Shown in pieces: positions 54,999 through 59,503 of a DNA stretch of 64,000 nt. Location: positions 2,339-66,338 of the forward strand of contig JALTZF010000040.1 of assembly GCA_027046265.1 (NCBI GenBank), given 5' to 3'. Origin of the DNA: Pyrodictiaceae archaeon. Its GTDB lineage: Archaea > Thermoproteota > Thermoprotei_A > Sulfolobales > Pyrodictiaceae. Within the stretch, counting starts at the first letter, position 1. Every line of letters begins with the position of its first letter. The translations under genes and the position numbers were made by a program. The notes below the pieces were generated by a model. That model was not told where the DNA came from, searched no databases, and saw only the letters and a list, made by a program, of their open reading frames with translations.

Positions 54999-57023
54999 TT
55001 ATTTTTTAAGTAGTAGACGGGCTCTTTTCATTCTATATTCTTCTATGAGCTTCCTAAACTCATTAATGCTGAGCCCCTTTTGTGAAATAGTGTCTTGACT
55101 ACGTTTCTTGTACTCCTCTAATATCGAATACGCATCAATAACTACTCTTCCATCAAGAAATGCCAGATTACCTATCTTTTCAACAACATATTTCTCCATG
55201 ACTAGTAGTGGTATGCGTAAGCTTTCAGCTGTACGGTAAAGCTTTTCATAGTGACGTGATGGTGTAAGAATTGCTAGGACACTTCTAGCTAGCTTATCTG
55301 CATACCTTTCTAAGCCTAGAGGGTTAGGTGACTCAATAATCACTATTTGCCTACCATAATGTCTCGACTTTTCTTCAATAATTCCCAAAGTTTTTGAAGA
55401 GAGATCATGTATCACTATTGCTGGAACAATATGTCCCTTGGCAATCTCAAACACGAAACTGGTCAATTTTTCAACATTTTCTTCAGCACTACGTAAACGG
55501 TTTCTAAGCCTTTCAAGCTCGTCTTGAAGTGATAGTGTTCGCTCACGAAGCATTGCTATTTCTCTATCTCTTTCTACTTCCTCCTTTAGTGACGTAGTCA
55601 TAATTTTTAAATCTATTTCAAGCGCTCTCACTGTATCCTCTAATTCAGCAAGTTTCTTCTTGAGCACTCTGTTCTCAGCTCTTAGCAGTTCAATTTCTGT
55701 TAGTAGCTGAGTATTCTGCTGAGAGACGCTATCAGTATCATTCCTAGATTTTCCATCGTCGATGTCCGGCAAAGTATAATTTTCGGCTAGTAACTCATTG
55801 ATGGCATTCTCTACGGCTTCTGCAATTGTTGCACCACGTATAACATCAGCCTTAACTTTTTCTATGTCTATGTCTAAACCTATTCTGCTAACATATGATT
55901 CGATCTGCCTCATCTTACCCTCATACATGTGAAGAGCCTTTACTGCTGCCGCCAATGCGTCTCTTACATGGGAATCGACTACCCTATGTAGGTCAGGGTA
56001 TTTTGACATGTACTCGTCGAGAATTATACGTTTTTCCTCTACACTTAATGAGGTAGGTGGCTCATAGATTGGCACCCTAAGAGAGGAAGCAAGTTTTCTT
56101 ACGAAATCAGGTGCTGGCGTAACATCTGTTGCTATAAGTATAGGTATGCCATATTGTCTTATTATTGCTATGACCTCACCTCTATCAAGACCTCGCCTTG
56201 AAACCGCAAATACTGGCTTACCATTTAAGTCAACAGCAGCTATACCTGTTGATACCCCTGGGTCTACGCCAACTATTATGAATGGCTTACTTCGCGTGCT
56301 TCCATAGTACTCTATTGTGTCAACGAACTCTATCTCACTTCTATAGACAGATTCGATCTCTATCCTTATATCTGTGTCTTCATGTGGCCTCACAACTTTA
56401 CTAACATGATTACGAGGAGCATATACTATGAATACAGCACTATCAAGGCCTCCTCCACTCTTACGAAACATTAAATCGTAGTCTAGTCCACTCCTATCGA
56501 GTGCTTTCTTGATGTCTTTTGCCGCACGCAATATAGCTGTACGGACTCTTCTCTGGTAACGTCGTGCGCTCATACCGCCATGCTTAAGCTTTCTTGACCT
56601 TGCAACTATTATTTTCGTTTTCTCCTCTACGTAACGTATGGGAGTGCCATACCCCATTTCTGCAAGCAAAGCAACAAGGTAAGCAGTACGAGAAGGGGAT
56701 AGCTTCCCACTGCCAGGATTTAACCCAGCTAAGTGTGCTAGTTTACGTAATTCTACAAAGCGGCCATCAGGAAGACGTGTTGCTTGTACGATAATGGTAT
56801 CAGAAGGCATTAGAGAAAGTATGTGGGCTAGCTCGCGCTTGTTACGGGCAAGCTCAAGTATGTTATCGACTGCAAGGATGCGTGGCCTATACTCCCAGAC
56901 AAGCCGTATGAGACGATAAAGGGGAACCCTTTCATACTTATTGACAAGCTTACCATTTTCTAGCAAGGCTACACTAAAGCATAATGGGCCATATTTACAG
57001 CCAGGCTCAACATCTATACCCAT
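54999..57023 (-). CDS. conserved archaeal protein with RNase H-fold modules (DUF460/COG2433-like) and a central coiled coil
   Basis: N-terminal MGIDVEPG...ILAVDN and a second VGVDPGVSTGIAAVD module, separated from the C-terminal part by a long heptad-rich segment. Confidence 0.55.
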   Translation of the reverse strand: MGIDVEPGCKYGPLCFSVALLENGKLVNKYERVPLYRLIRLVWEYRPRILAVDNILELARNKRELAHILSLMPSDTIIVQATRLPDGRFVELRKLAHLAGLNPGSGKLSPSRTAYLVALLAEMGYGTPIRYVEEKTKIIVARSRKLKHGGMSARRYQRRVRTAILRAAKDIKKALDRSGLDYDLMFRKSGGGLDSAVFIVYAPRNHVSKVVRPHEDTDIRIEIESVYRSEIEFVDTIEYYGSTRSKPFIIVGVDPGVSTGIAAVDLNGKPVFAVSRRGLDRGEVIAIIRQYGIPILIATDVTPAPDFVRKLASSLRVPIYEPPTSLSVEEKRIILDEYMSKYPDLHRVVDSHVRDALAAAVKALHMYEGKMRQIESYVSRIGLDIDIEKVKADVIRGATIAEAVENAINELLAENYTLPDIDDGKSRNDTDSVSQQNTQLLTEIELLRAENRVLKKKLAELEDTVRALEIDLKIMTTSLKEEVERDREIAMLRERTLSLQDELERLRNRLRSAEENVEKLTSFVFEIAKGHIVPAIVIHDLSSKTLGIIEEKSRHYGRQIVIIESPNPLGLERYADKLARSVLAILTPSRHYEKLYRTAESLRIPLLVMEKYVVEKIGNLAFLDGRVVIDAYSILEEYKKRSQDTISQKGLSINEFRKLIEEYRMKRARLLLKK

Positions 57024-57180
57024 TACCTTCAGACTGTGTCACCCCAACCAAGAAATGCTTAATGGGCTGTGACACTTTTTCACATGCTCTATATCATGCT
57101 TTTTAGAGAGCACACTGTACCGTGTTACTGGTCAGCAGATTAAGGCCTATAAGTCCAACTCTAATAATTAATACTACCTT

Positions 57181-57400
57181 GGCCCCGCTGGTCTCACACC
57201 CGCAGAGGCCCGGCTACGGGAACAATGAAGCGGGGCGGTCAAGCGGGGCACACCACTAGAATATTCTAGGCAAAGACTATGGCTACGGGATGAGCGAGCC
57301 CCCTCGCGCCCCTAGCCCTCTGAGGCTAGGGGTGCCTATGACGTGTGCCGGGCCGGTTGCGACCGCGCCTTAAGTGTGAGAGGACGCGATTACAAGGGTT
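57181..57400 (+). ncRNA. GC-rich structured RNA, family unassigned (SRP-RNA-like motifs; possible stable ncRNA or 5' leader)
   Basis: GC-rich island in A/T-rich flanks, with a TATA-like TAATAATTAATA at 57162-73. Long-range pairing: CUCACAC (57193-99) with GUGUGAG (57374-80), and GGCCCGGC (57207-14) with GCCGGGCC (57347-54). Hairpins at 57256-69, 57294-307 and 57309-32 (9 bp). CAGAGGCCCG-GCUA-CGGGAACAAUG (57203-27) and AUGACGUGUGCCGGG (57338-52) recall SRP helix 8/5 sequences from memory. The length (about 215 nt) and motif order do not fit a canonical archaeal 7S RNA. Confidence 0.5.
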
Positions 57401-57463
57401 TGTTGTGATGCACGGTAATTCTTAGAATCCCCCCTACACTATCTGTTTCTAGGTGAACCTCCC

Positions 57464-58141
57464 GTGCCACGGGTACCCGTGAAGCTGGTGTCATGGGAGG
57501 AAATTGTTGAGTGGAGTAGAGGCCTAGCAAGAAAGATAAAAGAGAGTGGTTACAAGCCAACCGTTATAATAGCCGTTGCAAGGGGAGGCTATGTTCCTGC
57601 TAGACTGCTTGCAGACTTTCTTAATGTCACAAACATGCTGAGCATACAAAGCCAACACTGGACAGAAGCTGCCAAAGCTGCTGAGAAGGCTATACTCAAA
57701 TTCCCCTACAAAGTTGACTTAAGCGAGCACGACGCCTTACTAGTCGATGATATCGTTGATACTGGTGATACATTGCTACTAGCAAGAGAATACATTTTAG
57801 AGAACTGGAAGCCTAGAACACTCAAAATAGCCACACTTCAATGGATAAGTCCTGTTGCAAAATTCAGGCCAGACTATTACTATATAGAAGTAAAGGAGTG
57901 GACTTGGTTCCAATATCCTTGGACAAGACTTGAAGACGTCACTCAGTTCATAGAAAGAATGTTAAGAGAAGAAGCTAAAGAGACTGGTAAAAAGATATGG
58001 AGTCTTAGTGAGATAAAAGAAAAGTTCTATGAATGGTATGGTATAAGAGTGGAAGAATACTATTATCATGATGCACTTGATCTCCTTGAAGAAAAAGGAG
58101 TCATAAAAAAGGAGAAGAACAACTATAAACTACTCGTATGA
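57464..58141 (+). CDS. purine phosphoribosyltransferase-fold protein with C-terminal ~70-aa extension
   Basis: PRPP motif ALLVDDIVDTGDTL. GTG start. The tail ...YYYHDALDLLEEKGVIKKEKNNYKLLV looks winged-helix-like. Confidence 0.65.
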   Translation: MPRVPVKLVSWEEIVEWSRGLARKIKESGYKPTVIIAVARGGYVPARLLADFLNVTNMLSIQSQHWTEAAKAAEKAILKFPYKVDLSEHDALLVDDIVDTGDTLLLAREYILENWKPRTLKIATLQWISPVAKFRPDYYYIEVKEWTWFQYPWTRLEDVTQFIERMLREEAKETGKKIWSLSEIKEKFYEWYGIRVEEYYYHDALDLLEEKGVIKKEKNNYKLLV

Positions 58142-58225: not shown

Positions 58226-59281
58226 TTAACACTTGTCTTCATTCTTTAGTTCTAATCCAGCCATACGTACAGCTCTTACAAAGTCTTTGAATGATAAGGG
58301 CAGCCAAGAAGATAATAAATAGTATAGTCTACAAGGAACATATCGTCTTCTGCCTCGGCTCCATCTTGCTAATTCCACCATTGCACGCAATCGTGCATCA
58401 TGTGGACTCATAGTTGAAAGTATGGCTTTCTCTATGTCTCCACAGAAATCGTACCTGGCTTTCAGCAGTATCTCGATAATCATGTTTATCCTATTGGGTA
58501 CACCATGTATACTGCCGCGAAGCTCCAGTCTGCGCGGGACGTAGTACCCTCTAAGCTCGAGTTCGCGTGTCGCACCAGGCCGTGGTAATCTATCAACTAT
58601 AGCACCTATAATGAATGCATCTGCCTCAAGAACTTCTGATCGTGTGAGAGGCTTTTCTGCACTCGGATCTAGGAGTATGATCTTCGTGTATCCGCGCAAA
58701 CGAAGAGCCTCATCAGCGGGAAGCGATGAAACTTGTACGTGTGGCGTAGCCATGAAACTTTTAAGCCACGAATACACGCCTGGCTTTACAGATGACAAAA
58801 TCAAGTGTCTATCCCATAAATATCTCCTTATAACGCCAAGAGAGGCACCAACCTGTTTTCTAAGACTTCTGGCCTCACTAACGAGGTGTTCATCTATTAA
58901 CGAGAAGTCAAGGGCGAAAACGGGCTCAGGCTTGGAGGGAAGGCTGTCTATGAGCTTCCACTTAAGCTTATTCCCCCTCCTAGTATACACTACATCGGAG
59001 TGGTCAACGCCTTTACCCCAGATGAAGACGAAATTCTTCCCCTTATACTCTTCAACATACGACACTGTACCCTTAACACTTTTGAATAGTAACTCGCCAC
59101 CCCATACTAACGCATAGACTGTTACAAGCTGGAAAGGATCCCTCGTGTTACGCAACTTATCGGGTGGAATGTCTGTAGAGAGCCTATATGCACCACTTTC
59201 TTCAAGTAGATCAAGAAGTCTATACTTCGGTCTCTCACGGATATTTTTTATGTAGCAATCAGCTACCGTGAGGACAGTCAT
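58226..59281 (-). CDS. SPOUT-type methyltransferase, Trm10-like (tRNA m1G9/m1A9) candidate
   Basis: ILLDPSAEKPL...DAFIIGAIVDR...VPNRINMIIEIL resembles the Trm10 SPOUT core. The assignment is from memory. Confidence 0.45.
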   Translation of the reverse strand: MTVLTVADCYIKNIRERPKYRLLDLLEESGAYRLSTDIPPDKLRNTRDPFQLVTVYALVWGGELLFKSVKGTVSYVEEYKGKNFVFIWGKGVDHSDVVYTRRGNKLKWKLIDSLPSKPEPVFALDFSLIDEHLVSEARSLRKQVGASLGVIRRYLWDRHLILSSVKPGVYSWLKSFMATPHVQVSSLPADEALRLRGYTKIILLDPSAEKPLTRSEVLEADAFIIGAIVDRLPRPGATRELELRGYYVPRRLELRGSIHGVPNRINMIIEILLKARYDFCGDIEKAILSTMSPHDARLRAMVELARWSRGRRRYVPCRLYYLLSSWLPLSFKDFVRAVRMAGLELKNEDKC

Positions 59282-59444: not shown

Positions 59445-59503
59445 GGCTGTGAAGAGGGCTAGATATGCTGAATATTAGTGATGAAGGTTTCTGGTGCTGA
59501 GCC
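59445..59503 (+). ncRNA. C/D box sRNA (2'-O-methylation guide)
   Basis: GGCU-GUGAAGA(C)-GGGCUAGAUAUG(12 nt)-CUGA(D')-AUAUUA-GUGAUGA(C')-AGGUUUCUGGUG(12 nt)-CUGA(D)-GCC. The spacing is canonical, the termini GGC/GCC are complementary, and an A/T-rich TATA-like tract lies 10-25 nt upstream. Confidence 0.75.

Follow-up and report, generated by a model that had tools for sequence, protein, structure and literature searches.

The closest described relatives of the RNAs considered here are archaeal guides for the modification of ribosomal RNA (rRNA). Pab91, a box H/ACA RNA of Pyrococcus, guides formation of pseudouridine 2685 (Psi2685) in the 23S rRNA of P. abyssi, as confirmed experimentally (PMC2377435). 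Pab21/snoR9 (RF00065), also from Pyrococcus, carries a 5' H/ACA guide and a 3' box C/D guide on one transcript, and forms with and without the C/D motif have been detected in vivo (PMC2377435, PMC4652768). In Pyrobaculum, box C/D small RNAs (sRNAs) with non-canonical K-motifs escape detection models, and co-transcription of sRNA genes is fluid (PMC6009581). The present analysis concerns a GC-rich element at positions 57181-57400 of a 64,000-nucleotide (nt) stretch of DNA from a Pyrodictiaceae archaeon; the window, below, means this whole stretch. The element very probably encodes two rRNA-modification guides in tandem, an H/ACA guide directed at 23S rRNA (module M1) and an atypical C/D-type guide directed at 16S rRNA (module M2). 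The locus is of an ordinary kind, previously unannotated, and its second half is atypical.

The evidence for this reading consists of the architecture of the two modules, with their stems, guide segments and kink-turns (K-turns), covariation of their helices, antisense matches to rRNA, co-variation of one guide with its target, and the presence of genes for the modification machinery. The G+C content of 57150-57400 is 58-66%, against roughly 40-45% in the flanks, and the island lies between a DUF460 gene (54999-57023, minus strand) and a gene for a phosphoribosyltransferase (PRT)-fold protein (57464-58141, plus strand). TATAAG at 57148-57153 precedes G57181 by 28-33 nt, and an AT-rich segment, TAATAATTAATA, lies at 57162-57173. 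A sequence-only reading of the window had singled out a sharp GC-rich island with a TATA-like box just upstream, and both observations stand. M1 and M2 are probably transcribed from this one promoter (TATA at ~57148) as a dicistronic or composite RNA, judging from the sequence. Feature coordinates are given in Table 1; genomes, contigs, families and genera are designated by the prefixes G, C, f and g.

Table 1. Positions of the two modules, their parts and the flanking signals in the window (1-based; bp, base pairs).
Feature	Position	Strand	Remarks
TATA-like box TATAAGTC	57148..57155	+	26-33 nt before first base of H/ACA hairpin; candidate archaeal promoter, putative function
M1, single-hairpin box H/ACA guide (Pab91-like)	57182..57252	+	ACA box 57250-57252; Rfam match and covariation
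M1 lower stem, 8 bp (helix 1)	57182..57189 GCCCCGCU with 57242-57249 AGCGGGGC	+	92.3% paired
M1 pocket, 5' strand GGUCUCACA	57190..57198	+	GUCUCAC antisense to 23S GUGAGAC; invariant in 26 homologues
M1 upper stem, K-turn and apical hairpin	57199..57234	+	CCCGC 57199-57203 with GCGGG 57230-57234
M1 K-turn	G57205 A57206 opposite bulge A57224 A57225 U57226, then G57227 A57228		Read from the sequence
M1 pocket, 3' strand GCGGUCA	57235..57241	+	CGGUC antisense to 23S GACCG; invariant
Variable inter-module spacer	57253..57282	+	Small palindrome CUAGAAUAUUCUAG; unalignable among homologues
M2, non-canonical box C/D-type guide with two K-turns	~57283..57369, core 57286-57365	+	Covariation, covariance model
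M2 terminal stem	CGG 57286-57288 with CCG 57363-57365	+	
C-box equivalent AUGAGCG	57290-57296	+	Bulge G57289 A57290 U57291; sheared pair G57292 A57293
Extra antisense element GCCCCCUCGC in 5' spacer	57298..57307	+	GCCCCCU nearly invariant
D' guide CCCCUAGCCC	57309..57318	+	Antisense to 16S GGGCUAGGGG, 606-615 in G017
D' box CUGA	57320-57323	+	CNGA in 19/22 homologues
M2 apical hairpin capping internal K-turn	57324..57336	+	GGC 57324-57326 with GCC 57334-57336
C' box AUGACGU	57338-57344	+	Bulge U57337 A57338 U57339; sheared G57340 A57341
D guide UGCCGGGCCGG	57346..57356	+	Antisense to 16S CCGGCCCGGCA, 543-553 in G017, 5' strand of helix 21
D-box equivalent GCGA	57359-57362	+	GA core kept; CU replaced by GC
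Non-conserved 3' tail	57370..57405	+	T-rich run GGGTTTGTTG (57397-57405) at end; possible transcript end, putative terminator

At gathering thresholds, Rfam models find three tRNAs and nothing else in the window, and tRNAs only at five homologous loci. A permissive scan of 56950-57650 gives a sole match above chance, to the Pab91 H/ACA family (RF02795), with M1 covering the whole model on the plus strand (positions 1-57 of 57; 34.5 bits, E 1.1e-4); further matches at E<=10 (mir-9080, SNORD23, STnc320, GRIK4 and SOX2OT) are at chance level and were rejected. An archaeal H/ACA guide is expected to have stems of 7 bp or more below the pocket and 5 bp or more above it, an ACA or ANA box placed 14-16 nt downstream of the top of the pocket, a K-turn or K-loop above the pocket, and two pocket strands that pair with rRNA and leave U-N unpaired. 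M1 agrees in stem lengths (8 bp lower, 5 bp upper), pocket (strands of 9 and 7 nt), K-turn, ACA spacing (15 nt) and rRNA pairing. Its K-turn strands read CCCGC-A-GA-GG... and ...C-AAU-GA-A-GCGGG; across 26 homologues GA 57205-57206 and the ACA box are invariant and GA 57227-57228 is nearly so. The K-turn above the pocket is a predicted L7Ae site.

The homologues, from three families, were compared with 500 shuffles and with slid controls. In the M1 structure 91.9% of cells are paired, slid controls reach only 35-55%, and none of the 500 shuffles attains the covariation score. The upper stem is paired in 99.2% of cells with covariation at 4/5 of its pairs; CCCGC/GCGGG is replaced by CCACC/GGUGG in family f7, by CCUGC/GCAGG in G012 and by CUCGG/CCGGG in G018. 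Around the M1 target, 23S rRNA reads UAGACCGUCGUGAGACAGG in all five relatives examined (G003, G010, G013, G017 and G021), and the pocket pairs with it as GACCG (5 bp), unpaired UC and GUGAGAC (7 bp). The target segment is presumably the one just 5' of E. coli A2602, around U2593, which adjoins the peptidyl-transferase centre. M1 would be bound by L7Ae at the K-turn and by Cbf5, Nop10 and Gar1 at the ACA box and lower stem; the pocket would then hold 23S 5'-GACCG-UC-GUGAGAC-3' and offer the unpaired U, in the context GACCG-U-CGUGAGAC, for pseudouridine formation. At one locus of family f12 (G035, L067) the H/ACA hairpin linked to M2 has the 5' pocket strand UCCCCAC instead of UCUCAC; this hairpin may have been retargeted.

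M2 was analyzed in a motif-anchored alignment of 22 homologues, again with 500 shuffles and slid controls. From 5' to 3' it consists of one strand of a terminal stem, GAU-GA followed by GC, a long 5' spacer, CNGA, a variable hairpin, NRU-GA, a 14-nt 3' spacer, GC-GA and the second strand of the terminal stem. Read as boxes, the layout is C, guide, D', loop, C', guide, D, and it has a double K-turn. The helices that flank the K-turns are 84.7% paired, 9/12 of their pairs show compensatory change, none of the 500 shuffles does as well, and slid controls reach 48% at most; both K-turns of the C/D layout thus have covarying flanking helices. In alignment columns, the terminal stem changes from GC to AU at 8-100 and from CG to GC at 6-102, and stem II from GC to CG and AU at 14-97 and from CG to UA at 15-96. 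The D'/C' boxes are those of a C/D sRNA: UGA of the C' box is invariant in all 22 homologues, and C of the D' box pairs with G of the C' box (columns 44-80, 95% paired). The apical hairpin varies in length and sequence and its pairs covary (GC in 12 and CG in 7 at columns 49-72; CG in 13, GC in 2 and UA in 2 at 50-71). At the terminal K-turn, the GC of the GCGA D box is joined to the C-box strand by covarying Watson-Crick pairs. A local hairpin in the 5' spacer, GCGAG/CUCGC, was tried in two registers and was no better than shuffles. RNAalifold recovers only two features of M2, its terminal stem and a GCCC/GGGC pairing that is invariant and carries no covariation information.

Targets in 16S rRNA were taken from 13 relatives, in four families, that also carry M2. 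The D guide forms an 11-bp perfect duplex from positions 3-13 upstream of GCGA, and an uninterrupted duplex of 10-12 bp is found in 13/13 genomes with both the sRNA and 16S. Guide and target change jointly, in five variants across these genomes: UACC with 16S GGUA in genera g3 and g10, UGCC with GGCA in g1, g6 and g7, GCCAGG with CCUGGC in family f10, GUCGAG with CUCGAC in f8, and GUCGGG with CCCGAC in f7. This co-variation is the strongest single evidence for M2 as an rRNA antisense guide. The D' guide forms 10 bp from positions 2-11 upstream of CUGA and is perfect in genera g1, g6 and g10, the window's own genus among them; no 23S target was found for the CCCCUUGCCC variant of this guide. 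Both guides have the rRNA antisense of at least 9-10 nt expected of a C/D sRNA, with the fifth (N+5) nucleotide, C57354 for D and G57315 for D', inside the duplex. From the guide positions, 2'-O-methylguanosine (Gm) is predicted at the G set apart in CC-G-GCCCGGCA, which is the first G of the CCGG that opens the D-guide target, and 2'-O-methylcytidine (Cm) at the central C of GGG-C-UAGGGG. We take the two target segments to be E. coli 16S ~585-595 and ~646-655, which face each other as the two strands of the helix 21/22 base and are partly paired in mature 16S.

The long 5' spacer also holds an extra antisense element. Its C form, GCCCCCUCGC, present in the window, is a perfect complement of 16S 164-173 (GCGAGGGGGC); six relatives have instead an A form that is the complement of 16S 608-617 (GCUAGGGGGC), a site overlapping the D' target. 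The element co-varies with neither 16S site; 164-173 is invariant while the guide varies among C, A and U. Its sequence is suggestive of a diverged duplicate of the D' guide.

When 41 related genomes were searched at the DNA level, the element turned up in 21/24 genomes of the same family and in 2/2 of one sister family; a pattern scan of named genomes identifies the family as Pyrodictiaceae (Pyrodictium, Hyperthermus and many metagenome-assembled genomes, MAGs). Similarity falls into two blocks, M1 at 57181-57252 (up to 89% identical) and M2 at ~57282-57369, separated by a spacer of 0 to ~90 nt; in G009, GGGAUGA directly follows the ACA box. The modules are separable: they are divergent, on opposite strands, in G007 and on different contigs in G018, M1 only was found in G012, and M2 is solitary in f10, where it has its own AT-rich upstream region. 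A covariance model built from M2 (R1) and run on 151 genomes of the order finds a single copy in the window's own genome (94.1 bits) and copies in 33/151 genomes, distributed over families as 17/19 in f1, 7/8 in f7, 3/3 in f12, 1/1 in f5, 2/18 in f8, 2/18 in f10 and 0 in seven others. An H/ACA hairpin lies directly 5' of M2 in f1, f7, f8 (G157) and f12. The sequence-only reading had listed another stable non-coding RNA among its options, which was right in spirit; there are two guide sRNAs rather than one RNA of 215 nt.

In the proposed mechanism, the terminal (C/D-like) and internal (C'/D') K-turns of M2 would bind L7Ae and then Nop5 and fibrillarin, and the 3' and 5' spacers would pair with 16S CCGGCCCGGCA and GGGCUAGGGG, respectively. 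Fibrillarin and Nop5 genes are adjacent on contig C130, and a Nop10 gene is on C10.

Several points weigh against the reading of the island as tandem guides. M1 scores 34.5 bits against an Rfam gathering score of 71 bits and so falls outside Pab91 by that measure. M1 is therefore read, from its sequence, as a Pyrodictiaceae functional equivalent or distant homologue of Pab91 and not as a curated member. M2 lacks the canonical RUGAUGA C box and CUGA D box, of which the RUGA and GA cores alone survive; where ~12 nt would be usual, its spacers measure 23 and 14 nt, and the 5' spacer ranges over 19-27 nt in f1. Its D' guide has a U.U mismatch beside the predicted target site in g3 and g7, the distance from D' guide to D' box shifts in other families, and GCCCCCUCGC shows no clean co-variation with a target. 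Neither 16S nor 23S is detectable in the MAG that holds the window (G000; 143 contigs, marker-gene completeness 98.65%), for which reason the target sequences come from relatives; in G003, 23S is present only as 3' fragments. Transcription, co-transcription, ends, processing and possible circularisation of M1 and M2 are presumed, as are protein binding and modification itself.

The unusual features of M2 also fit a role as an antisense chaperone of 16S folding, a catalytically silent K-turn/L7Ae ribonucleoprotein (RNP) whose two or three antisense elements transiently keep the strands of helix 21/22 apart, and which is not a methylation guide. Such an RNP would suit the 23- and 14-nt spacers and the GCGA D box, and the best two targets form opposite strands of a single 16S helix; the D' element also lies at differing distances from the D' box between families and accommodates a mismatch next to N+5, and the third antisense element is ambiguous in register. 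This role is nevertheless unlikely: in the window's own genus both N+5 nucleotides lie within uninterrupted duplex, the C'/D' pair is near canonical, and in a relative from f8 (G055) the D' spacer is 12 nt long and the boxes are UUGA, which suggests that M2 descended from an ordinary C/D methylation guide. Methylation and chaperoning are, moreover, compatible. A more far-reaching form of the idea, which is quite unlikely, makes M2 an unrecognised class of C/D-derived RNP, mainly a chaperone of assembly that would clamp helix 21/22 at its base and be delivered with the 23S guide as a bifunctional particle. If so, M2 would engage up to three 16S segments (164-173, 543-553 and 606-617) by means of a duplicated antisense element in its expanded 5' spacer, with a terminal K-turn whose stem II is Watson-Crick (D box GCGA), and the H/ACA-C/D particle would be an archaeal counterpart of the eukaryotic composite small Cajal body-specific RNAs (scaRNAs) or of chaperone small nucleolar RNAs (snoRNAs).

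That 57181-57400 is instead one stable RNA of ~215 nt with a function of its own, held together by pairing of its ends and by a 9-bp stem, is very unlikely. The minimum free energy (MFE) fold does contain both helices, the ends pairing through UCUCACAC (57192-57199) and GUGUGAGA (57374-57381) and the 9-bp stem through CCCCUAGCC (57309-57317) and GGCUAGGGG (57324-57332), and a 231-nt stretch folds at -104.3 kcal/mol (z = -2.89), with 0/200 dinucleotide shuffles equally good; the modules are also adjacent in most genomes and abut in G009. The opposite strand is nearly as stable (z = -2.57), so thermodynamics by itself says little. Homology to other genera stops at ~57364-57370; no genome outside the genus aligns with the tail beyond ~57370, and in the one close relative that aligns through it (G003, same genus, 88% identical) the GUGUGAGA motif is changed. 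The 9-bp stem is restricted to the window and G003. Neither helix is conserved, which means that the MFE global fold is not the conserved structure; in addition the modules are split in G007 and G018, M2 is solitary in f10, and the spacer between them, of 0-90 nt, is unconserved. The sequence-only reading had proposed long-range end pairing, a 9-bp stem and a single structured RNA. The island does fold better than shuffles and both pairings can be drawn in the window; it is the helices of the two modules that covary, and the conserved fold is theirs.

Two observations concern the segments of these pairings. GUGUGAGA, in the 3' tail, pairs with the 5' pocket strand of M1 and shares GUGAGA with the 23S target; with the motif weakened in G003 and no other relative aligning, this match is probably due to chance. 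In the window and G003 only, the M2 apical hairpin carries GGCUAGGGG, which reproduces exactly nine bases of the D' guide's 16S target. As a target mimic it allows the D' guide to pair in cis; this cis pairing, which is the 9-bp stem, may be a self-masking peculiar to the lineage or may be due to chance.

A cis-acting leader or riboswitch-like element for the PRT-fold gene, also among the earlier suggestions, is highly improbable. The gene lies on the same strand, 95 nt downstream of the RNA pair, and the order DUF460, sRNAs, PRT is common in Pyrodictiaceae, the only family with PRT adjacency. Within that family, however, the gap from M2 to PRT runs from 45 to ~650 nt, with the sRNAs abutting PRT in the window's lineage, and in G010 (L004 1701-2153) a 150-aa open reading frame intervenes. 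PRT follows M1 without M2 in G018, and the RNAs persist in families f7, f8, f10 and f12, where the ~1.5 kb of flank on either side contains no PRT gene. The conserved unpaired segments, moreover, follow rRNA sequence and not mRNA. The association of the RNAs with PRT is synteny, not a leader relationship. Gaps of ~500-650 nt, equivalent to that of G010, occur in many Pyrodictiaceae. The PRT-fold protein itself matches Pfam Pribosyltran over residues 11-149 (61.4 bits), has a C-terminal extension of ~75 aa outside the match, and is 69-96% identical across Pyrodictiaceae. Beyond it, 58226-59281 (minus strand) encodes a 351-aa protein whose weak Pfam match (34.5 bits) is SFM1-like (SPOUT methyltransferase); this gene sits between the PRT gene and a C/D sRNA at 59445-59503.

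A divergent or circularly permuted signal recognition particle (SRP) RNA (RF01857), suggested only by short similarities in the sequence-only reading, is ruled out, since no SRP or RNase P model matches 56950-57650 under permissive Rfam settings (E<=10), a canonical full-length Archaea_SRP RNA is found on another contig (G000:C27:13769-14080; 166.5 bits, model 1-317), and the SRP-like motifs are explained as the H/ACA K-turn with its apex and the C' box with the D guide.

The reading of the island as tandem guides removes two false leads, a second or permuted SRP RNA and a PRT riboswitch, and adds two unannotated guide RNAs to the Pyrodictiaceae, for which a literature search found no sRNA catalogue or description. 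M2 is a comparatively validated C/D-type guide that departs from the box motifs and 12-nt spacers assumed by automated finders, yet it keeps pace with its rRNA target in five compensatory variants. It should be useful for better sRNA detection models, and it bears on how much deviation the Nop5/fibrillarin ruler tolerates.

Compared with known systems, M1 most resembles Pab91/Pfu91 of Pyrococcus (RF02795), likewise a single hairpin, equal in size and built of lower stem, pocket, K-turn-bearing upper stem and 3' ACA. The pocket cores UCUCAC (5') and CGGUC (3') match the family consensus, which gives M1 the same predicted 23S target motif, the site of Psi2685 in P. abyssi. Unlike Pab91, M1 comes from crenarchaeal (Thermoproteota) Pyrodictiaceae, its stems and apex have diverged, and it is linked to a C/D-like RNA, a linkage not reported for Pab91.

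M2 shares its box order and K-turn GA pairs with canonical archaeal C/D sRNAs, such as those of Pyrobaculum and Sulfolobus (sR) and the textbook example in the window at 59445-59503, which has CUGA boxes and 12-nt spacers; it likewise has 10-11 nt of rRNA antisense upstream of D' and D, compatible with N+5 and directed at neighbouring sites. It differs in its D box (GCGA) and C box (AUGAGCG), in a terminal stem II with Watson-Crick pairs (G-C, C-G) rather than U.U and G-C, in an internal motif that is a full K-turn with a covarying hairpin rather than a K-loop, in spacers of 23 and 14 nt rather than 12, and in the second antisense element of its 5' spacer. No Rfam C/D model matches M2.

As a pair, the modules have the order of Pab21/snoR9, with H/ACA 5' and C/D 3'. 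There is no sequence or model similarity to that RNA, and guides and targets differ. Here the linkage is kept across at least four crenarchaeal families and is breakable (G007, G018 and f10), so that linkage of an H/ACA guide to a following C/D guide extends beyond its single Pyrococcus precedent.

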